A stretch of 64,000 nt of DNA from an uncultured Ignavibacteria bacterium (GCA_964496505.1 CAZBZV010000001.1:117209-181208), one strand, 5' to 3'; shown: positions 32,704 through 46,524, counted from the first letter of the stretch. Program-made: numbers and translations. Notes: generated by a model not told the origin, from the sequence alone.

Positions 32704-33628
32704 TGCAAGATTCAACATTCCTCCCATTATCTCAGTCGCATCCGGCAAGGGAGGAGTAGGCAAATCACTTCTCTCGGTATCGCTCTCCGCCCTGCTGTCG
32801 GAAAAAGGATTCAGGGTACTTCTGATCGACGCCGCTCTGGGACTGGGCAATCTGCATATAATGACAAACAGCATCCCGGTCGGGACTCTTGAAGATATCT
32901 TCGAGAATAACTGCGAGGTCAGGGACGCTGTTTTGAATATCAGTGAAAACCTTGACCTGATACCGTCAGCATCCGGAATCAGAACAAACAACCGCAATAT
33001 CGACGAGAACAGGCTGCGGGTCAAACTTGCCGGGCTTAAGAGTGAATACGATTTGATAATCCTCGACACACCCAGCGGAATTTCGGACAGGAGCCTCAGA
33101 TTTATCGCGCTCGCCGATGCCCTGATCCTGATAGTTACTCCCGAGCTGGGCTCGCTTGCGGACGGTTACGCTGTGCTGAAGCTGATCAATTCCGAGCAGC
33201 AAAACAGAGAATGCATGCTGATGGTAAATATGTCCCGGTCCGCGAGTGAGGGCAAATCCACTGCCGAGAAATTCGCGGAAATGACTAAACGGTTTCTGAG
33301 TTTAAAATTGAAACATATCGGCTGGCTGCCGGAGGACTCGAAGATAAAAAAGGTCCTCATGCGCCAGAATATATTGAACAGTCAGAGGGAGGATTGTCCT
33401 TTCTTTGAACATTTGCACGAAGCAGTGCAATATATTTTCCCCGATCTCGTAAAACATGAGGTTAAGGGCAAAGACAAAAGCAGGGGTAAGATAAATTCTG
33501 ATTTTATGTTAAGTTCTCCGTCGCCACTGACCGATAGAAGTAATGGTATTCCACGTGCGGGGGAACTTGAGAACAACATCGTAAACACAAATGTCAAAGC
33601 TCAAGGGAAGACTCTTTATGAAAGCTAA
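32687..33628 (+). CDS. flhG: MinD/ParA-family flagellar number regulator FlhG (YlxH/FleN)
   Basis: Deviant Walker A 'SGKGGVGKS'; start placed at ATG 32687 with GGAGG RBS, overlapping flhF end. Confidence 0.85.
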   Translation: MFSSLNARFNIPPIISVASGKGGVGKSLLSVSLSALLSEKGFRVLLIDAALGLGNLHIMTNSIPVGTLEDIFENNCEVRDAVLNISENLDLIPSASGIRTNNRNIDENRLRVKLAGLKSEYDLIILDTPSGISDRSLRFIALADALILIVTPELGSLADGYAVLKLINSEQQNRECMLMVNMSRSASEGKSTAEKFAEMTKRFLSLKLKHIGWLPEDSKIKKVLMRQNILNSQREDCPFFEHLHEAVQYIFPDLVKHEVKGKDKSRGKINSDFMLSSPSPLTDRSNGIPRAGELENNIVNTNVKAQGKTLYES

Positions 33629-34382
33629 GGATGCGATCTGGGAGGCATACCGAAAGGAATGCGCGCCCGAAATCAGGGAAGAGCTGCTGTCGCAGTATTT
33701 GCCGCTGGTGAGAAATGTCGCCAGCCGCATGGCGATTGGGTTTCCAAAATCGGTTGAGGTTGGTGACCTGGTCAATACCGGAGTCATCGGTTTGATTGAG
33801 GCATTCAGGAACTTCGATCCCGAAAGGGGCGTCAAGTTCGAAACCTATGCTGTTCCCAGAATCCGGGGAGCTATCCTCGATGAGTTGAGGTCGCTGGATT
33901 GGGTTCCGCGGTCAACACGTGCCAGAGCCAGGGAGATAGAAAGAGCCCTCGTCAGATTAGAGGGAAAATTAGGCAGAGCTCCCAGTGATCTGGAACTGGC
34001 CGGAGAACTCAATTATGAACTCAACGATCTGTATAAGGCTTTGGACGATTCCAACTGCACCGTGCTTTTGTCCCTGGACGAAATGATCTATCGCGAGGAT
34101 GACAATCGTCAGGTGCCCAGAGTTGAAACGGTCAAGGCCGAATCGAAAGAGTCGGTGCTCAATGATCTCGAAAAGCAGGAGATGCGTGCGTATCTGACAA
34201 TCGCAATTTCGAATCTAACCGAGCAGGAGAAGCTTGTTATTGCTCTTTATTATTACGAAGAATTAACCTTGAAGGAAATCGGCGAAGTTATGTCGATCTC
34301 CGAGTCGCGAGTCTCACAAATTCACACCAAGGCGGTATTGAAACTCAGAGGAATGGTGAGAGAAAAATTCGCGCTCACTTAA
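33591..34382 (+). CDS. fliA: flagellar sigma factor sigma-28 (FliA/SigD)
   Basis: Region 2 'LIEAFRNFDPERGVKFETYAVPRIRGAILDELR' and region 4 'LTLKEIGEVMSISESRVSQIHTKAVLKLR'. Confidence 0.9.
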   Translation: MSKLKGRLFMKAKDAIWEAYRKECAPEIREELLSQYLPLVRNVASRMAIGFPKSVEVGDLVNTGVIGLIEAFRNFDPERGVKFETYAVPRIRGAILDELRSLDWVPRSTRARAREIERALVRLEGKLGRAPSDLELAGELNYELNDLYKALDDSNCTVLLSLDEMIYREDDNRQVPRVETVKAESKESVLNDLEKQEMRAYLTIAISNLTEQEKLVIALYYYEELTLKEIGEVMSISESRVSQIHTKAVLKLRGMVREKFALT

Positions 34383-34395
34383 AACGCGGGAGTGA

Positions 34396-34686
34396 GTGAT
34401 GGTCCGTGCAATAGAACTGGCGGACTTGCTGGCAAAAACAACTGCGGCCGAGAAGGTGACGCAGATCGAAAAAGCCTCTCCGGATGTGGCACAGAGGCAG
34501 TTTGCCGCTGAGCTTGAGGAGAAGAAAGCCGAACGCCGGCAGAAGTCTGTGCCTACCTCGAAAACCGATGAGGCCATCATTCATCGCGATCAACATGGCA
34601 AGGATAAAGAGGGCCAGCAAAAGAAAAAAAAGAAGGAGCAGGATAAGAAGAAGAAAGAGTCTATGAGCATAGATATCAAGGCATAG
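34396..34686 (+). CDS. hypothetical small protein with poly-Lys/Glu C-terminal tail
   Basis: 96-aa ORF immediately after fliA; no family recognised. Confidence 0.4.
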   Translation: MMVRAIELADLLAKTTAAEKVTQIEKASPDVAQRQFAAELEEKKAERRQKSVPTSKTDEAIIHRDQHGKDKEGQQKKKKKEQDKKKKESMSIDIKA

Positions 34687-34762: not shown

Positions 34763-37501
34763 ATGGGAAAGGATTGGATGATGTCCAGGCAACTCGGTAA
34801 ACCGGGGCAGAGATACGGGACAAAGAGAAGAAATACAGCAGATGAATCCAAAAGGGGAGCTAAGAAAAGAGTTTATGGGAAGATAAGACAGTTAAATGAT
34901 TCAAGAGATCCATTAAGTCACAGTCCCTATCCGCCCAGAACCGGGAGAGAAAGTCTCCAAAACCACGAGGCCAAGAGCCGGAATTTGAATAGCGTCTCCG
35001 AATTAAAGAGACGCTTTGGAAAAAGAAATGACGTCTATGGCAGGAAGTCCGTCTATGCCCACAATGATATTTCCTGCTCCCCCGCCGCCCATGAAAATGC
35101 CGAGCACATCCTATCTGCGAAACTCGACAGGCCCTGGATCGAATCATCCTGCAACAGCGATCCGGATTCGGCACAGGTTGAACGGCAAATCAAACCCCTG
35201 AATCCCAATTCAAATGCCAAAGACATTCCCGCAGCATTATCGGATCCTGAGGCCAAACAGTCCCCGAGCCGTAAGAAAAGCAAAACCAGAACCGGAAGCA
35301 AAGCTAAAAACAGCACCACGAAAAATCAATCGGAAATAGAGTTTGTCGGCGAGACCAGAAATGAAACAGAGGATATTCCCCGTAATGACATTTTCGATAA
35401 TGAAGTTCAGGATCATCTCGATACACTTGAGACTCATATCGATGCCGTATTCGATGATGGAGAAATTACAAAAGAACATACTCCCGAGGCCGAAACAACC
35501 GAAAAAGCAACGCCGCCCGCGCGAAAAATTACATTATTCAGGCCGCCGGAAATTTCCAGAAAAGACAGAGGGGATGATAAGGCAGACCAGGAACAAATCT
35601 CCTTCGATGATGATCTTCGGGAATTTATAAATACAATCCTTACTCCCGGCAGCACCAAGGAACAAGCAGTTTCAGATGAGCGGATATCGGCATCTAAAGC
35701 CGCTCCCTCGATAGAGAAAAAGTCCGAGATACCCGAAAAAGTCGAGACTGTAAGTGCTGAGACAGAAAGCAGTGATCCTGTACTCTCATCGGCTGAGGCA
35801 GTTTCAGTAAGCCCCTCAGGCATTGCCACTGAGACAGCATCTGAAAATGTCGAACCACAGGCATTGTCTGAGTCAGTGACAGCGGTGCTGGAAGAAGAAG
35901 TCCACAGCCCTCAGGATTCCGGTGAACGCCTGAGATTTGAAATAGCCGAGATAGAGGAGAGGCCGGATGAATCGGATGCTCCTGATGAGAACGATGCAAA
36001 TCGAATTAGACAATTCGATACAAGTGCGGAAGAGGCCAGGGAGATAATCCCCGAAAACGAGTCCGAGACGGAAGAAAACCAATCCATGGAATCGCCAGAC
36101 GATGAAAAAAAGATTGATAGGGAGGATGCGCAGGAAGCTGAAAAAGAACCGCCTAAGAAAGCCGGCAAATCGAAAATCGTGCTGCTGCGTTCCTCGGAAG
36201 AAATTCGTCCCCAGATTGCCAAACCGGATCTCTCGAAACGTCATCAGCGTCCTGATCGCCCCTGGAGCCTGGATGTCGATATCGCTCTTCGTGAGCTAAT
36301 GGGAGATATCCCCCGTAATACAAAGATATCGCTGGAGCAGATGGCCCTGGCATGGAAGCGCGGATACGAATCATATTTCTCAAGACCGTTAACCGACAGC
36401 AGGTTTCCATACCTCTGGGCGGATGTAAAACAGATAAAGTTCGGCAGCAATTTCAATAGAAATTATCTTAGTATAGTAGGCGTCAATCTGAGCGGTGAAC
36501 GCAAACTCCTGGCGCTTTCTGAGGCTGAGACAAATTCCCCGGAAATCTGGCATATGCTTCTGAGACGTCTTGAGCGCTGTGATCTCGGCAATCCCAGACT
36601 GTTCGTGGGCAGGGCAGATCTGCCTTTATGGGATGTGTTGCCGCAGGTCTTTCCACGGACTGAGATTCAGTTCTGCTGGAATGATTTCAAAGTGAATATG
36701 CTCGAACAGTTCCCTAAGGAGTTTTCAGATCAAGTCGAGTCGCGGCTTCTGAAAATACAGTTTGCCGAGAGCAGAGAATCCGCCGAAGACTGGATCGATT
36801 ATTTCAAGAACAGTTTCGGAAAGAAATATCCCCGAGCTGTTACCGACTTGCTGAAAAATAAAAACAACCTTCTAAGCTATCTTTCCTTCCCGCGCAGGCA
36901 CTGGCGCAATTTACGCACCGATGGTTTCATCGGCCCCTGGTATCCTTCCCGAGCACTTCTGGAAACGGTCTGCAAATACGAGCCGATGAAGGATGTTACT
37001 CTTTATCTGGTATTCAATTACCTTATCCGGTCCCAGCCCGACTGGCCCCGACTGAAAGGGCGGCGTGCGTTGAGGAATGCCCGGAAGGGCAGGAAATTCA
37101 TTAATGGCAAACAAGTAAGCCGCCGAAAGCTGAAAAAAATCAACTCCTCTGCCGATAAAGAAACTAAGGACAGCCATTTTGGCATTTTGAAAAAATGGTA
37201 CTCAAGAGCCTTGAAGCTGATTGCCGGTAAGCCAAAGAAATCCAAAAAGTTTCACTCTAAACCGGCGATCGACAAAAGAAAATCGGCTCAGAAAACGCCG
37301 GATACGGGAAGAGAGTTGCTGGAAAAAGGCCTGATGGAGAGATGGCGCAAAAAGACTGGAGCGGGAAATGGTAGGAAGGCAGCCCCGCAATCCGCTAAGT
37401 CGAAATCAAACAGGTTCACACCCGGTAAGGATGCCGATAAGAAACAGCTTTCAGGTATGGAGCGCGAGCTTCTTGAGGATTTGAGGTCTGAAAAAGTATG
37501 A
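34763..37501 (+). CDS. 912-aa protein: ~500-aa acidic/disordered N-region + C-terminal Mutator/IS256-family transposase core domain lacking the catalytic Glu
   Basis: Residues ~510-800 align motif-by-motif with IS256 Tnp. 'PYLWADVKQIKF' ~ YLxxDGIYxKVR. 'VGVNLSGERKLLAL...SPEIWHMLLRRLERCDLGNPRLFVGRADLPLW...VFPRTEIQFCWNDFKVNMLEQ' ~ IGID.DG.KEVLG...ES.EFW..FL.DLK.RGL..V.LVVSDG..GL..A...VFP.A..QRC.VHLVRN. 'KYPRAVTDLLKNKNNLLSYLSFPRRHWRNLRTDGFIG' ~ KYP.......NW..LL.FF.FP..IRR.IYTTNAIES. D1 and D2 are retained; E of TTNAIES is replaced by RTDGFIG. No terminal IRs seen. Confidence 0.7.
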   Translation: MGKDWMMSRQLGKPGQRYGTKRRNTADESKRGAKKRVYGKIRQLNDSRDPLSHSPYPPRTGRESLQNHEAKSRNLNSVSELKRRFGKRNDVYGRKSVYAHNDISCSPAAHENAEHILSAKLDRPWIESSCNSDPDSAQVERQIKPLNPNSNAKDIPAALSDPEAKQSPSRKKSKTRTGSKAKNSTTKNQSEIEFVGETRNETEDIPRNDIFDNEVQDHLDTLETHIDAVFDDGEITKEHTPEAETTEKATPPARKITLFRPPEISRKDRGDDKADQEQISFDDDLREFINTILTPGSTKEQAVSDERISASKAAPSIEKKSEIPEKVETVSAETESSDPVLSSAEAVSVSPSGIATETASENVEPQALSESVTAVLEEEVHSPQDSGERLRFEIAEIEERPDESDAPDENDANRIRQFDTSAEEAREIIPENESETEENQSMESPDDEKKIDREDAQEAEKEPPKKAGKSKIVLLRSSEEIRPQIAKPDLSKRHQRPDRPWSLDVDIALRELMGDIPRNTKISLEQMALAWKRGYESYFSRPLTDSRFPYLWADVKQIKFGSNFNRNYLSIVGVNLSGERKLLALSEAETNSPEIWHMLLRRLERCDLGNPRLFVGRADLPLWDVLPQVFPRTEIQFCWNDFKVNMLEQFPKEFSDQVESRLLKIQFAESRESAEDWIDYFKNSFGKKYPRAVTDLLKNKNNLLSYLSFPRRHWRNLRTDGFIGPWYPSRALLETVCKYEPMKDVTLYLVFNYLIRSQPDWPRLKGRRALRNARKGRKFINGKQVSRRKLKKINSSADKETKDSHFGILKKWYSRALKLIAGKPKKSKKFHSKPAIDKRKSAQKTPDTGRELLEKGLMERWRKKTGAGNGRKAAPQSAKSKSNRFTPGKDADKKQLSGMERELLEDLRSEKV

Positions 37502-37523: not shown

Positions 37524-38729
37524 ATGACAAAGCAGCAAGATTCACCGATTTTTATGTCCAAGGTAGAGTGTCCGGTATGCGGCACAAAATTTGAAGTCGA
37601 AACGATTAAAGTTGGTGCTTATAATGAGGAGGGCCGCGATACGGATTTCCGGCCTAAGAAAAGAAAATGGCTTAATCCAGATTTCCAGAAGTATAATCCG
37701 CTTCTTTTCTTTATGGCTGTTTGTCCAAACTGCTTTTTTACCAAGGAGTTCACCTCAAAATATAAGGACTGGAAAAGCGACACGGTTTTTAAGAATTATC
37801 GCCAGAAAAACCTCAAGGATAAGCATCTCAAGGAATTCAAGAATGATGACGGCGTAATTAAAACTCTGGCTCATAACATCGACGCCGACAAATACCCGTT
37901 CCAGACGGCGGTGCTTAAAATGCTGCTGGGTATATATGACGAGCAGTTTAACCTGCAATACTCTAACCTGGATATCGGCCGGTATTTTCTGCGAATCGCC
38001 TGGCTCTTCCGCGAAAATTCTCAAAGCGATAAAAGCGGCGAAGGACAGCTTGCCAGCCACGCCATGAAAATAGAAGATATTATTCTCAGGCTCTCGGGTT
38101 ACTATGAGCAAATCCGTGAGGATGAAAAAGCGCTGGCCGCTTCATCGGCCGAGTTCATCAAAGATCCCCTCTTTCCGGAAGGCGACAAGAAAAGAGAATT
38201 ATCGGAATGCTATAATGATGCTCTCTCCGATCTGGATGAGACAGTCGAGAAATATAAATCGGCAGTGGTCAAGCTGAAAGGCAGCATATCTTCCAGCAGC
38301 GAGATAGTGGGGGTTAACGCTGAATCGATGGCTCCTCTGGAGCAGCCCTTCAACGGTCACACCAGCTTTCGGGAATATCTCCGTGAATTGAAGAAGATAT
38401 GGCCCGAAGCGCCAACCTCCGAGCACGAGGCCATGAATTCAGCCGCAGAATACTATAGGGCCGCCTATGAAGAGGGCAAGGAAATCTCCGCCGGAAATCA
38501 GGCTATCCAGGCGGTCTATCTTATAGCGGAATTGTCTCGCCGTATCGGCAAAAACAGGGAAGCTCGAGGCTATTTCAACACATCGATAAAATTAGCGCAG
38601 GAATATATTCATGCCAATAAAGGGGACCGTTCGAGGACGGCGCTGGCGCGTAAGATCCTGGAACTCGCACTGGAACAGGGAAAACTGAATCTGAAAACAC
38701 TGGAACAGAGGAAGAATGTCTCCGCTTGA
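37524..38729 (+). CDS. zinc-ribbon protein (DUF2225-like N-terminus CPVCG...VCPNC) with helical C-terminal region
   Basis: 'VECPVCGTKFEVE...DFRPKKRKWLNPDFQKYNPLLFFMAVCPNCFFTKEF'; 401 aa. Confidence 0.55.
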   Translation: MTKQQDSPIFMSKVECPVCGTKFEVETIKVGAYNEEGRDTDFRPKKRKWLNPDFQKYNPLLFFMAVCPNCFFTKEFTSKYKDWKSDTVFKNYRQKNLKDKHLKEFKNDDGVIKTLAHNIDADKYPFQTAVLKMLLGIYDEQFNLQYSNLDIGRYFLRIAWLFRENSQSDKSGEGQLASHAMKIEDIILRLSGYYEQIREDEKALAASSAEFIKDPLFPEGDKKRELSECYNDALSDLDETVEKYKSAVVKLKGSISSSSEIVGVNAESMAPLEQPFNGHTSFREYLRELKKIWPEAPTSEHEAMNSAAEYYRAAYEEGKEISAGNQAIQAVYLIAELSRRIGKNREARGYFNTSIKLAQEYIHANKGDRSRTALARKILELALEQGKLNLKTLEQRKNVSA

Positions 38730-39474
38730 AAAAACATCCGCAAATAACGTGAAAATTCAGCTCTGGGAAAAGCTGGAGCTGGAATGCGGGAAAAACGAGA
38801 ATACCGGAATTTACTTTGCCAGAGTGCAGGACCTTTCCAACGGCGGTATTCTGATCGACCGCCCGATCTGGCTGAGCGGTGAGCCAACATTCAATCCGGA
38901 TGAGTATTTTCTGGTAACGGTCATGCGTGAAGACGGCGCTTACCGATTCAACGGCAGAATAATCAAATCCTTCAAGAAAGGCGATAAGCAATTCTATGTC
39001 ATAAAATACCCGGACAAATTGTACCGGTATCAGAGAAGGGGGTATGTCAGGGTGGAGCTGGATATGAATGTTCATTTCAAGCTTCTAAATGATGTTCTGG
39101 ATTCCAAAATATCTCTGGAGAAATCCAAAGAGTATGTATCTTGCAGTATAAATCTGTCGGCCTCGGGAATCCTGATTAATTCCCTCAAGGTGTTGAAAAA
39201 GGACGATATGGTTGCACTTTATCTGAAGGAAAAATCTCTGCAAATGGATTTTCCGGTTTTTGGCATTGTGCGCAGGATAGTGGATGCGGAGAACAACCGT
39301 ATTCATGCCGGCATTGAGTTTATAACAGCAGAAGAACTCGAGAAACAGCTCGATGCCGAACAGCTAAAGCGCCTCCCGGATTCAATTTTCAGCTTCACCG
39401 ATCGCAGAAGGCAGGCTCTGGTTCAATTCGTATTTAATTATCAGATTAAGCTCAGGCAGAAAGGCCTGATATAG
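38716..39474 (+). CDS. YcgR/MotI(DgrA)-like c-di-GMP-binding flagellar brake protein (PilZN + PilZ)
   Basis: PilZ motifs 'YQRRGYVRV' (RxxxR) and 'NLSASGILI' ((D/N)xSxGG variant). Confidence 0.75.
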   Translation: MSPLEKTSANNVKIQLWEKLELECGKNENTGIYFARVQDLSNGGILIDRPIWLSGEPTFNPDEYFLVTVMREDGAYRFNGRIIKSFKKGDKQFYVIKYPDKLYRYQRRGYVRVELDMNVHFKLLNDVLDSKISLEKSKEYVSCSINLSASGILINSLKVLKKDDMVALYLKEKSLQMDFPVFGIVRRIVDAENNRIHAGIEFITAEELEKQLDAEQLKRLPDSIFSFTDRRRQALVQFVFNYQIKLRQKGLI

Positions 39475-39482
39475 GAGGTATT

Positions 39483-39995
39483 ATGGCCCCGCAAAATCCT
39501 GCTAAGGGAAAAACAGCCGGAAAAACAGGCAAAAAACCGACTGTTAAAAAACCATTTAAGGTCTTCCATCACAAGAGAAGAAAGTATGTCAGACTGGAAG
39601 TCAATAGCCCCATAAAATTCAAGACCTTCAATCCGATTGAGCCGGATTTGAAACTCGATGAGAATGAGACCTGCGAGGGAACGATTCTCAATATCTCCGG
39701 CGGAGGCGTTCTCTTTGAGACCGATTACACCGTGCGCGAAAACGACTACCTCGTATTGGAAATGACCCTGGCCGATGCGGACACCATAACGGGAATCATC
39801 GGCAAGGTCAAGCGTGTCGATACCGATGAGGGCACGCCTTTGGTGGGAATCGAATTCATGTCTCCGGAAAAACTCAAAGCCGAGCTGCCCTCGCATGTGC
39901 TGGATAAAATCGGTGAAGAGATTTACAGCTTCGACGAGCAGTTGAGAAAAATGCTCTTGAAGTATGTCTTCACGCAGAAAGTGGAAAAGGTATAG
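39483..39995 (+). CDS. PilZ-domain protein with basic N-terminal tail
   Basis: 'HHKRRKYVRLEV' (RxxxR) and 'NISGGGVLF' (DxSxGG). Confidence 0.7.
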   Translation: MAPQNPAKGKTAGKTGKKPTVKKPFKVFHHKRRKYVRLEVNSPIKFKTFNPIEPDLKLDENETCEGTILNISGGGVLFETDYTVRENDYLVLEMTLADADTITGIIGKVKRVDTDEGTPLVGIEFMSPEKLKAELPSHVLDKIGEEIYSFDEQLRKMLLKYVFTQKVEKV

Positions 39996-39996
39996 C

Positions 39997-40614
39997 ATGA
40001 AAAGTCCGGCCATTGTATTCTTATTGCTTATCTTTTGCATTGTCGGATCAGTATCCGCCGCCGATCAGATCATGGTCCTGCACGTTATCCAATCCGATGT
40101 CGAGTATATAGATCTCGATCTCAAGAACAGGCTCGGATTTGTCCTCTCCGGTGTCAACGGCCTCGAGCTGGTCTGGGCCGAGGAGATAGAGAGCTGGAAG
40201 GCGGGAAGCGATTTCAGACCCGGGGAGCTACACTCTCATAGATTCCAGCGGGAACTTGTCAATGATTTTGACGCCGATTATCTGATCTGGGTGAAAGTCT
40301 TAAGGGCTCAGTCGAATATCAGCTCATCAACGGTGCTCCCTTTCGTCTTCAAATCTCATAAACGCAAATTCTACCTGGAAACCGAGCTGAGGATAATCGA
40401 TGCCAGAAGCGGCAGGATTGTAAGTCAGGAAAGATTCGAGGAGAGCAGTAATGGTTCGCGAAGTCTGGCTTATCTGGATCTGGATGCCAGCAACGAGCCC
40501 GCCCTGCACTCGCCGTATACGCAGCAGATTATGGCCTTCAGGGAGCTGGAAGAAAAGACCGCACGCAAGATAGCCAAAGCCGTAATAGAAACTGCAAAAC
40601 AGAACCGTCCCTGA
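39997..40614 (+). CDS. hypothetical exported protein
   Basis: Signal peptide MKSPAIVFLLLIFCIVGSVSA; start moved to ATG 39997. Confidence 0.5.
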   Translation: MKSPAIVFLLLIFCIVGSVSAADQIMVLHVIQSDVEYIDLDLKNRLGFVLSGVNGLELVWAEEIESWKAGSDFRPGELHSHRFQRELVNDFDADYLIWVKVLRAQSNISSSTVLPFVFKSHKRKFYLETELRIIDARSGRIVSQERFEESSNGSRSLAYLDLDASNEPALHSPYTQQIMAFRELEEKTARKIAKAVIETAKQNRP

Positions 40615-40708
40615 ACTGTTATAAATATTATGGGGAGATCAGCAGAATCCCAAAAATCCGTGATTTCCCCTTGACATTCCAGGGATATCCTCAAAGCGGG
40701 ATAAAAAG

Positions 40709-42457
40709 ATGTCGTCATCAGTAAAAGCCCTACATGCAAATATCCCTTCCGAGGGAATCTCTGTAAATTCAATAGAGAATCTGCCCTTTCCGTCATTTTT
40801 ATGCAATGAGAATCTGGATGTCATTTCGGTAAATCAGGCTATGACAAATCTTCTCGGAGTTAATGCCCATGGGGATATGCAAATAACCAGCCTGGGACAA
40901 ATCGAATCTCTTCTGGGTGCCCGTTTGCATCCTCAAAATTACCATAACAGCAGTAACAAAGGCGGTCTGGTAAGCTTCACGAATCTCCGGGGTGAGATGC
41001 GTTACTGTACCGTTTCCATGATGCCTCTGGATTTGAAGGACGGTTCGGTATTTATGTATATCCTTCAGGATGAGAGCAGAACATATCTTCTGGGGGAAAG
41101 GCTGGCACGCAAAGATTCCGAGCTGTCGATTTTCTCCCAGGTCGTTTCAGCCCTGGGTTCTCTTTTGAATTTTGATGAAATCCTGCAGATAATTCTGATT
41201 GCGATTACCGCCCGTGAAGGATTGGGCTTTAACCGCGCTTTTTTGTTTTTATACGATCAGGATAAAGCGCAACTGGAAGGTTATACCGGAATCGGACCGT
41301 CATCGCCCGAGGAGGCGGGGCGGATATGGAATTCCCTTCCGGATGAAGGCCGCAGCCTTATTGAGGTTCTGAAAACATATTCGGCAACTATTAACAATTC
41401 TGCGGAAAGTATTGCCGAAAAAGTCAAGAATATCAAAATCCCTCTGGATGCCGAATCTCACCTGCTAAATCAGGTTGTCCTGCACAAAGCTCCTCGAATC
41501 ATCAGTATTGATAATTGCGGCTGCAAGAGTGAATGCGAAGTCTGTATTGCAATGGAAGTGGATCAATTTGCTGCTGTTCCGATGGTGGCAGGGGAGAATG
41601 TACTGGGGGTAATAACCGCTGATAATTTAATAACCGGCCGCTCTATAAAAGAGCGCGATTTATCGCAATTGCAGGTCTTTGCGAATCAGGCCGCGATTGC
41701 CATAGAAAGAACCCGTCTCTACCAGAGCCTTTCAGATTACCTTAAGAAGCTTGAAAAAGCCAACATAAATCTGCGCAATGCCCAGGAAGAATTATTAAAA
41801 ATCGAAAGGGTAACTCTCTGGAGCGAACTCACCTCCGACATTGCTCACGAACTCAGGAATCCCGCCTCCATAATCGGCGGTTTTGCCGCCCTGATCTGTA
41901 AATCTCAGGATTTGCCCGATAATCTAAAAGAACAGGCCAAAATAATTTTTGATGAATGTTCGCGACTCGAGAGCGCGCTGAACACCGTTCTGGATTTCTC
42001 CAAATCGTTTGCTCAGGAAAAAACCGGATTCTGTCTCTTGGATGTTGTTCGGGAAACCTGCGAAATCGTTCTTACCAAAGAGGTTAATCGCCGAATCAGG
42101 ATCCAAGATCCGGAGGATAAATCCTGCTATGTGGTTGAGGGGCGTGTGGATCAGATAAAGTTTGCATATTATACTATAATGTCCATGATATCAGAACGGC
42201 TGTCGCCCTCATGTACCATTAACATCCGCTTTTATTCTGCCGATACTAATCATAAGGCGGTATTTGAGATAGAGTCACCGGATTCGCCAAAAACCGACTA
42301 TCTGGAGGAGATCGCAAATCCGAGTACTGGGAAAGTCGCACTCAGGATGAGTATGGCGGTCGAAGCCATAAAATATAACGGCGGAAATCTCGGAATTGAA
42401 TCGAGTGCCGAGGGGAGGACACGCATTTACGTGGAATGGCCTTATGCAAGGAGATGA
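40709..42457 (+). CDS. cytoplasmic sensor histidine kinase (sensory N-region, GAF domain, HisKA, HATPase_c)
   Basis: H-box 'ELTSDIAHELRNPASIIGG'; GAF-like 'REGLGFNRAFLFLYDQDKAQLEGYTGIGP'; C-terminal ATPase region ending 'GGNLGIESSAEGRTRIYVEW'. Confidence 0.85.
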   Translation: MSSSVKALHANIPSEGISVNSIENLPFPSFLCNENLDVISVNQAMTNLLGVNAHGDMQITSLGQIESLLGARLHPQNYHNSSNKGGLVSFTNLRGEMRYCTVSMMPLDLKDGSVFMYILQDESRTYLLGERLARKDSELSIFSQVVSALGSLLNFDEILQIILIAITAREGLGFNRAFLFLYDQDKAQLEGYTGIGPSSPEEAGRIWNSLPDEGRSLIEVLKTYSATINNSAESIAEKVKNIKIPLDAESHLLNQVVLHKAPRIISIDNCGCKSECEVCIAMEVDQFAAVPMVAGENVLGVITADNLITGRSIKERDLSQLQVFANQAAIAIERTRLYQSLSDYLKKLEKANINLRNAQEELLKIERVTLWSELTSDIAHELRNPASIIGGFAALICKSQDLPDNLKEQAKIIFDECSRLESALNTVLDFSKSFAQEKTGFCLLDVVRETCEIVLTKEVNRRIRIQDPEDKSCYVVEGRVDQIKFAYYTIMSMISERLSPSCTINIRFYSADTNHKAVFEIESPDSPKTDYLEEIANPSTGKVALRMSMAVEAIKYNGGNLGIESSAEGRTRIYVEWPYARR

Positions 42458-46420: not shown

Positions 46421-46433
46421 ATTTGTTAATCAG

Positions 46434-46506
46434 GCGCGAGTAGCTCAGTTGGTAGAGCCCCAGCTTCCCAAGCTGGCTGTCGCGGGTTCGAGCCCCGTCT
46501 CGCGCT
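46434..46506 (+). tRNA. tRNA-Gly (anticodon CCC)
   Basis: Hand-folded cloverleaf: 7-bp acceptor GCGCGAG/CTCGCGC, D-arm GCTC..GAGC, anticodon stem CCAGC/GCTGG with loop TTCCCAA, T-arm GCGGG-TTCGAGC-CCCGT, discriminator U; followed by T-run. Confidence 0.9.
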
Positions 46507-46524
46507 TTTTGTATTGGTTGGATT

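Follow-up and report, generated by a model that had tools for sequence, protein, structure and literature searches.

The window analyzed in this study is a 64,000-nucleotide stretch of DNA recorded as an uncultured Ignavibacteria bacterium (GCA_964496505.1, CAZBZV010000001.1:117209-181208), and its flagellar locus contains an intact open reading frame (ORF) of 912 amino acids (aa), here termed gene X, which a preliminary description of the same DNA had taken for a likely domesticated transposase of the IS256/Mutator family. ORF calling confirmed the gene, with an ATG start, at the coordinates listed in Table 1 (stop codon included), and the start is additionally backed by an N-terminus, MGK(D/E)..MS, conserved among orthologs. 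X is co-oriented and tightly packed with its neighbors, as had been described: fliA and a short Lys-rich ORF (p96) precede it, a DUF2225 gene and two PilZ genes follow, and the genes are separated by gaps of 13-76 nt or share short overlaps. The comparative evidence presented below makes it highly probable that X, a domesticated transposase no longer able to transpose, belongs to the flagellar operon as a host gene.

The X protein and its active site

By composition and structure prediction, the X protein is divisible into five parts: a basic tip, an acidic stretch, the core (rich in hydrophobic residues), a basic tail and a terminal motif. The disordered, low-complexity N-terminus, initially put at ~500 aa, comprises ~490 aa: in the full-length AlphaFold2 (AF2) model, residues 1-490 have predicted local distance difference test (pLDDT) values of 31-52 and no secondary structure, and values exceed 90 over residues ~500-800. 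This region is acidic over residues 201-469 (net charge of -46) but basic over residues 1-100, and Lys/Ala-rich N-termini are found in several X orthologs. Across the clade of X-type proteins delineated below, the N-terminal extension measures between ~180 and ~990 aa and can hardly be aligned, with the reading frame preserved in every member. An RPPEV-type linear pattern, [ILVFM]x[ILVFM]2[RK][PA][PS][EDS][IVQ], which was defined post hoc, occurs in 7 of 11 family N-termini vs. 0.09% of shuffles. The pre-core motif (residues 470-490) takes the form KIVLLRSSEEIRPQ..KPD across the clade, and RPWSLDVEIALRDLMG is the conserved motif where the X fold begins.

The assignment of the core to the IS256/Mutator group, proposed in the preliminary description, was upheld by profile and structure searches. 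Residues 535-719 match the Pfam family PF00872 (Transposase_mut) with E=1.3e-20 and 74.1 bits (cutoff 21), over profile positions 148-334 of 379 only; residues 523-719 match the NCBIfam IS256 equivalog NF033543 with 106.9 bits, which is under its 150-bit cutoff; and the sole sequence match of X in the PDB is the IS256-family transposase ISCth4. Modeling of residues 490-912 from an alignment of 43 sequences gave a mean AF2 pLDDT of 85.5 (above 95 in the core). With this model, Foldseek found significant PDB matches to five ISCth4 transposase chains only (E of 3e-13 to 2e-11 over ~300 aligned columns), ahead of other RNase H-like transposases and integrases at E>8e-3. The transposase part does not form the C-terminal third of the protein, as had been thought, but spans residues ~500-790 and is followed by a basic tail of ~120 aa; genuine transposases stop directly after the core. 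All clade members carry such a tail, ending in a helix of the form L-S-G-(M/L)-E-R-E-L-L-E-(D/E)-L; of the residues of this helix, S897 is invariant and E902 and K911 are nearly so. The net charge amounts to +17 for the core and +21 for the tail of X.

The active-site register was established by aligning the clade with seven genuine IS256 transposases of ~400-430 aa, an alignment that is free of gaps over the core (~290 residues) and in which all seven controls retain the D, D, C, H, N and E positions. In X, the first catalytic Asp (D1) is kept as D554, whereas R617 stands at the second one (D2) and G724, within RTDGFIGPW, at the catalytic Glu; C638 of the CxxH motif is kept and D641 occupies its His position. 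With D1 kept and D2 and Glu replaced, X therefore retains one of the three triad residues. Of the two catalytic Asp initially reported as retained, the first thus stands and the second does not: D241 of ISCth4 (the D of G-D-G-x-L-G-L-W) aligns with R617, a HMMER alignment to ISCth4 agrees, and D620, three residues downstream of R617, is not homologous to the second catalytic Asp. The reported replacement of the Glu in RTDGFIGPW was correct, and the catalytic deficit is greater than claimed, with D2, Glu and the CxxH His varying across the clade. Among 11 members examined, D1 is kept in 10 (H in the remaining one), D2 in three (otherwise R, K, N, A or S), the Glu in one (otherwise G, K, L, D or S) and the CxxH His in none; the full DDE triad is present in no member, as compared with 7/7 control transposases.

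These data bear on the idea that X could still be a nucleic-acid enzyme, e.g., a nuclease or recombinase for flagellar phase variation, acting via D554 together with D620 or D720. While the near-universal D1, the proximity of D620 and D720, and the intact RNase H fold would fit such an activity, neither of the latter two residues is conserved in the clade (D/G/R/E/S/N at 620 and D/G/S/A/V/E at 720), the D2, Glu and His positions vary freely, one member has lost even D1, and inverted repeats of the invertible-segment type were not seen near the gene. We therefore consider retained catalysis very improbable.

The preliminary description also held that the N-terminal DNA-binding part of the transposase had been replaced. 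This applies to the DD and NDB domains, which have no counterpart in X (profile and structure matches begin at ~500-523, with no domain match in residues 1-490), but not to a helix-turn-helix (HTH) remnant at residues ~500-540, which is retained. This remnant aligns with the 'GLSxxDFxxAL..LLG...LSxSxISRLxxxW' region of the seven transposases, with predicted helices at residues 503-513 and 524-540. Within it, the segment 'LSxS(T)xxSRL' present in 7/7 transposases is changed to '(I/S)(S/F)(L/F)EQMA' in the clade, with an acidic residue gained and the Arg lost. From this altered segment, we infer that X has probably lost DNA recognition.

Table 1. Positions (window coordinates) of gene X, its parts and the adjacent genes
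Feature	Position	Strand	Basis and remarks
Gene X, very probably domesticated IS256-family transposase homolog	34763..37501	+	ORF call; orthologs in identical operon slot
Basic N-terminal segment, residues 1-100	34763..35062	+	26 K/R, 9 D/E, net +17; predicted disordered
Long disordered region, residues 101-469	35063..36169	+	Glu/Asp/Ser/Pro-rich; pLDDT 31-52; orthologs unalignable
Linear motif RKITLFRPPEISRKD, residues 254-268, inside disordered region	35522..35566	+	conserved pattern
Pre-core motif SKIVLLRSSEEIRPQIAKPDL, residues 470-490	36170..36232	+	kept in most family members; absent from true transposases
Transposase HTH remnant, residues ~499-541, RPWSLDVDIALRELMGD...ISLEQMALAWKRGYESYF	36257..36385	+	recognition-helix signature altered
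RNase H-like fold with all-alpha insertion domain, residues ~542-790	36386..37132	+	Pfam, AF2, Foldseek; catalytically incomplete
Basic tail, residues 791-893	37133..37441	+	31 K/R, 10 D/E; predicted helices 787-820, 848-865; absent from transposases
C-terminal helix LSGMERELLEDLRSEKV, residues 896-912	37448..37498	+	conserved; predicted helix 898-911
fliA (sigma-28)	33591..34382	+	upstream neighbor; Sigma70_r2/r3/r4 domains in orthologous loci
p96, 96-aa Lys-rich ORF	34396..34686	+	between fliA and slot gene; conserved in X clade and sister Zixibacteria
DUF2225 gene (zinc-ribbon/TPR-like)	37524..38729	+	Pfam PF09986, E=5.2e-24; invariant downstream neighbor
YcgR-like PilZ gene (PilZNR+PilZ)	38716..39474	+	Pfam
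Second PilZ gene	39483..39995	+	Pfam

Orthologs, synteny and selection

A domain-only search combined with an exhaustive phmmer scan of 1.84 billion representative sequences revealed a discrete X clade of about 12 clusters (E of 1e-128 to 1e-47, 34-61% identity). Nearly all its members are long proteins (576-1432 aa) whose core is placed toward the C-terminus. Next in the score ranking, after a drop, come ordinary transposases of 400-430 aa, at ≤32% identity. In every retrieved X-clade locus (L001, L002, L003, L005, L012/L013, L014, L015, L016/L017, L020 and L021, representing at least 10 distinct lineages), the gene is found between fliA with a 93-96-aa ORF on one side and DUF2225 with PilZ on the other, usually inside a complete fliM...flhA-flhF-flhG-fliA operon. 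One of these loci, L005, is from a Zixibacteria metagenome-assembled genome (MAG) with an intact X ortholog of 909 aa. The X-core identity falls from 92% down to 32% while that of FlhA stays at 81-98%, and since the slot is constant across such divergence, the position has been inherited rather than repeatedly re-inserted into. Thus, the ortholog search recommended in the preliminary description recovered the same architecture and position in at least 10 lineages, with core identities down to 32-34%. A split gene in L002 was considered as a case of pseudogenization and rejected, the split being a scaffold gap of Ns.

The selection analysis, also recommended there, is limited to pairwise Nei-Gojobori estimates of the nonsynonymous-to-synonymous rate ratio (dN/dS). 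For the X core, it yielded 0.12 between the window and L005 (dS 0.31) and 0.088 between the window and L003 (dS 0.51), values like those of seven neighboring genes (0.04-0.11, window vs. L005). Higher ratios were obtained for the disordered region (0.33-0.74; about 0.40 for the N-terminus vs. L005), in which all indels are in frame, and for the tail (0.33-0.53; 0.33 vs. L005). The conditions named beforehand as speaking for a plain insertion were looked for, and neither frameshifts in X, nor a second IS256-like copy in the 64-kb window, nor terminal inverted repeats (TIRs) flanking the ORF were found, the last as initially stated.

An insertion sequence (IS) of the IS256 family, active or decaying and with a fortuitously long ORF, would account for the clear transposase homology, and IS256 elements do occur in related genomes. 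A premature stop, moreover, is present in L004, an environmental contig of 3x coverage that is 99.06% identical to the window: a CAG>TAG change at the invariant Q636 (L004:748-750, window 36668-36670), located within three mismatches in 22 nt. Nevertheless, a mere insertion is effectively refuted by the absence of TIRs, by the identical site at FlhA identities down to 81% and X-core identities down to 32%, by the low core dN/dS (0.09-0.12), by the frame kept in every member through 180-990 aa of fast-evolving N-terminus and by the lost catalytic residues. The fixed slot, the dN/dS and the missing TIRs likewise support a host function over a decaying IS, as the preliminary description had argued. 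In the course of its evolution, X has kept the HTH remnant and the RNase H-like and helical insertion domains as a folded module that is subject to purifying selection; the DD and NDB domains, D2, Glu, the CxxH His and the TIRs have disappeared. Its additions are a disordered arm of ~500 aa, with a basic tip, an acidic body and short motifs, and a basic tail with a conserved helix.

The slot in sister Zixibacteria

Among homologs of the adjacent DUF2225 protein, about 16 clusters at 57-95% identity correspond to X-carrying genomes and are set off by a marked gap from the many other Zixibacteria, at ≤48%. We sampled 80 further loci anchored on DUF2225, and X-type genes among them are confined to the high-identity group. 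Sister Zixibacteria have the same operon but with a small ORF between the ~95-aa ORF and DUF2225; in about 50 sampled loci (among L022-L099, and, e.g., L018:7648-7986 and L019:7567-8001) it encodes a 112-153-aa protein with an N-terminal transmembrane (TM) helix and a conserved C-terminal domain. The signature G-x15-E-x2-(L/I/M/V/F) is present in 36 of 52 such small slot proteins vs. 4.5% of shuffles, and their top Pfam family is DUF2802 (found in 7 of 30 members, with E=6.8e-6 at best, which is under the gathering threshold).

DUF2802 is the family of FipA, a membrane protein of the single-pass type. The FipA gene lies right after flhF-flhG-fliA, and the protein, characterized so far in gammaproteobacteria, binds FlhF via G110 and L129 and recruits it to the pole, its TM helix being essential (PMC11620751). 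The G110/L129 spacing of FipA equals the signature spacing of the sister slot proteins. Because of the shared slot, the TM helix, DUF2802 and the G-x15-E-x2-L signature, we regard the sister-lineage gene as FipA-like, and X as having displaced it from the slot. Searched with a hidden Markov model (HMM) of the Zixibacteria FipA-like proteins, neither the window nor any X-clade locus showed a FipA-like ORF, with positive controls at E of 3e-11 to 7e-42. None of 17 X-family sequences contains a TM segment (no 19-residue window with a Kyte-Doolittle mean ≥1.6, the maximum being 1.4), as opposed to the positive controls L018, L019, L030 and L033.

The common slot raises the question of origin, i.e., whether X is a FipA::transposase::FipA chimera produced by IS256 insertion into fipA and still using the last FipA helix, which carries the FlhF-contacting Leu, to bind FlhF, a scenario that would be compatible with an adaptor role. 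Several features are in line with it: the end of X, LSGMERELL, resembles those of the closest outgroups (LSRSEMELM and LTRAEREFM), its E..L positions being those of FipA E126/L129; the register in which hhalign aligns the motifs never changes; a bona fide in-frame transposase::FipA fusion exists in another lineage; and in a sister lineage the operon has a genuine IS256 copy at a distance of ~6 kb (both described below). The quantitative tests point the other way. The candidate homology of the X tail to the FipA C-terminal domain gained no support, as the register is consistent but the profile-profile similarity is not significant (P of 0.05-0.15). Insertion inside fipA gained none either, since X with the core excised scores -2.2 to 6.2 bits against the FipA HMM, within the range of shuffled sequences (up to 8.5), and the pre-core motif bears no similarity to FipA (P of 0.85). 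In addition, the G110-equivalent spacing is absent in 11/12 X sequences, which have only the E-x-x-L core in the terminal helix, and no TM remnant is seen. The chimera is thus improbable in our assessment, and with the tests of FipA derivation negative, the claim made here is one of replacement at the same position, not of fusion.

A separate Zixibacteria lineage carries a 480-487-aa gene in the slot (L033:2860-4323, L036:325-1788, L042:194-1636 and L041:29-1033, the last of which is truncated where its contig ends). The first ~200 residues of its product match IS481-family transposases (HTH_28, E=5.9e-10; NCBIfam NF033577, E=8.4e-12 and 7e-10, with positions 1-163 and 2-192 of the 284-position profile aligned and scores far under the cutoff). 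Its final ~130 residues can be aligned with the FipA-like proteins, and in L033 this part includes the TM helix. An identity of only 30% between L033 and L042 argues that this IS481-FipA fusion is old and maintained. Judging by sequence, it is a second, independent transposase capture at the slot, in frame with a FipA-like gene. A broader generalization, that the fipA slot of Zixibacteria has recruited transposase-derived domains from different IS families at least twice because such folds are specifically useful for FlhF-dependent flagellum placement, appears rather doubtful at present; if the recurrence is adaptive, transposase folds may couple the nascent flagellar assembly site to DNA, the nucleoid or a chromosomal landmark.

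The slot is evolutionarily labile: in L032, L037, L064, L065, L072 and L075, fliA appears to end ~40-120 nt before DUF2225, without p96 or a slot gene. In the closest X-less lineage, a genuine IS256 transposase fragment with an intact RTTNPIES (L018:15815-16117, minus strand) is situated at the contig end ~6 kb downstream of the flagellar operon, and IS256 elements therefore circulate next to this operon. An apparently dead IS256 homolog of another kind, P0015 (L100:1226-3277), has K at D2, S at the Glu and Y at the CxxH His, and a multi-TM N-terminal domain; it adjoins a hybrid histidine kinase, has no flagellar context and may represent an independent domestication.

Proposed role, known systems and operon neighbors

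Overall, the explanation that on balance we find the most probable is that X is an exapted IS256/Mutator transposase, which has become a fixed single-copy member of the flhA-flhF-flhG-fliA operon, is vertically inherited in one Zixibacteria clade and functions as a non-catalytic adaptor. In this role, X would be a soluble protein with no catalytic task, taking part in FlhF/FlhG-dependent flagellar assembly or placement as a scaffold or adaptor. Its folded part, the former transposase, could offer a platform for binding, and the pre-core motif, the RPPEV-type motif and the C-terminal SG-hydrophobic-ERE-L helix might dock partners, with FlhF as the prime candidate and DUF2225, PilZ and p96 as alternatives. 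The charged disordered segments may provide a multivalent tether of low specificity, reminiscent of HubP-type landmarks. The specific mechanism, by which X takes the place of FipA as an adaptor, is put forward tentatively and is appreciably less certain than the general reading.

Several observations weigh against this explanation or its FipA-related part. Among the folded proteins of the operon, the X core evolves fastest, and all X members come from uncultured MAGs or metagenomes. The stop in L004 has two readings, an error in sequencing or assembly or a rare natural null allele, the latter of which would suggest that X is dispensable. Oligomerization of X cannot be assumed, as the main dimer interface of ISCth4 (the DD domain) is missing. 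FipA needs its TM helix, and X, being without one, cannot act as FipA does; X matches neither DUF2802 in Pfam nor the FipA-like HMM at E≤10, and the alignment of its tail with FipA falls short of significance, as described above. Finally, 10-64 kb per X-clade genome was covered, and a fipA copy may lie elsewhere.

The main rival of the adaptor is a role in which the transposase-derived protein binds DNA and regulates flagellar or motility genes. X would then act through the HTH remnant and core, or through the basic ends, on targets that are possibly relics of IS ends, in analogy to the plant proteins FHY3/FAR1, of Mutator-like origin, or to the TldR group of flagellin repressors. Such a role would be in keeping with the retention of the HTH remnant and of the DNA-cradling RNase H and insertion-domain fold, with the positive charge of core and tail, with the histone-H1-like, Lys/Ala-rich N-termini of several orthologs and with the location of X directly after the region of the flagellar sigma factor gene fliA. 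The IS481 fusion at the same slot keeps a clear transposase HTH, and a precedent is provided by flagellin regulators derived from transposon proteins (PMC10705468). However, the NDB domain, responsible for subterminal sequence-specific DNA binding, and the DD domain are absent, the HTH signature is changed as described above, a 270-residue acidic arm would disfavor DNA binding, and TIR-like repeats are not found near the gene. Because the DNA-recognition domains and the HTH signature have been lost, we rate a regulatory function as unlikely, though less so than the other alternatives to the adaptor.

FHY3, FAR1 and MUSTANG are eukaryotic transcription factors domesticated from Mutator-like elements (MULEs) that keep the N-terminal DNA-binding domain. 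X is like these proteins in belonging to the same superfamily and in being immobile, confined to a single locus, under purifying selection and recruited; it is unlike them in being bacterial, encoded in a flagellar operon and devoid of the DNA-binding N-terminus. HubP and FimV carry LysM, TM and FimV C-terminal domains, and no homology to them was detected in X by Pfam or NCBIfam searches. The likeness of X to HubP/FimV consists in large size, long acidic disordered or repetitive regions and a link to FlhF/FlhG (see also PMC11620751).

Closest in fold is the ISCth4 transposase TnpA (PDB 6xg8/6xgw/6xgx), an IS256-family enzyme with the triad D175/D241/E348, a C/DxxH motif in the insertion domain, and DD and NDB domains (PMC7780238). 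X shares with it a homologous HTH remnant, the RNase H-like fold and the four-helix insertion domain, and differs by the lost domains, residues and TIRs listed above, by its single copy and fixed position, and by the added disordered N-terminus and basic tail. Closest in biology is TldR, a group of TnpB-derived, nuclease-dead, RNA-guided repressors of flagellin that are often phage-encoded and act on fliC promoters (PMC10705468; PMC13418256). TldR and X are both bacterial transposon-encoded proteins that have lost catalysis and been recruited to flagellar biology; unlike TldR, X derives from a DDE transposase of the IS256 family rather than a RuvC-type TnpB, is chromosomal and operon-embedded, is probably not a repressor and shows no evidence of a guide RNA. 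With FipA, X has in common the niche right after the flhF-flhG-fliA segment and the E-x-x-L core in the terminal helix; it differs in the lack of a TM helix, a DUF2802 match and the G-x15-E-x2-L signature, in being six times larger and in its transposase fold.

In agreement with the preliminary description, the literature search found no described flagellum-associated protein derived from Mutator/IS256 transposases, nor any account of X in the literature on Zixibacteria flagella; the literature on prokaryotic transposase domestication yielded eukaryotic cases only, apart from the TnpB-derived TldR. We classify X as different from known exapted DDE transposases in being bacterial and operon-embedded, in having a very long disordered region and in displacing, as we see it, a polarity factor. 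Domestication of DDE transposases into a host operon is common in eukaryotes and rarely documented in bacteria, and the comparative evidence on X is unusually clean, with synteny that is fixed despite deep divergence, selection that is purifying and an active site that has been lost step by step. The case also bears on how FlhF is positioned outside gammaproteobacteria: it indicates that FipA-like proteins exist in Zixibacteria and shows that one clade has exchanged its FipA-like protein at the slot for a wholly different, TM-less one and that another lineage has joined a different transposase fragment to the FipA-like gene. If the recurrent capture of transposase folds at the slot is adaptive, X would represent a new class of polarity or assembly factor, combining a dead transposase with a HubP-like acidic disordered arm.

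As to the operon neighbors, promoter and terminator scans gave nothing above shuffled expectation, with no plus-strand terminator within the fliA-DUF2225 stretch. The p96 protein has no Pfam or NCBIfam match and a dN/dS of 0.11. ORFs of this type (~91-103 aa) always follow fliA in X-clade and sister loci (e.g., L018:7362-7637 and L019:7237-7548); their conserved N-termini conform to the pattern M.RP.[DE][IL].D..AK...EKV..I.KA.P...QRQFAA.L, and their C-termini are rich in Lys and Glu. Past the PilZ genes (window 39964-42457 onward; cf. L012:15498-21408), related loci continue with a ~200-216-aa ORF that has a weak FlgT_M match, and then with a GAF-HisKA kinase, response regulators, CheB and FapA, forming a conserved motility-regulation block. 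A tRNA-Gly(CCC) gene is located at 46433-46507 of the window.

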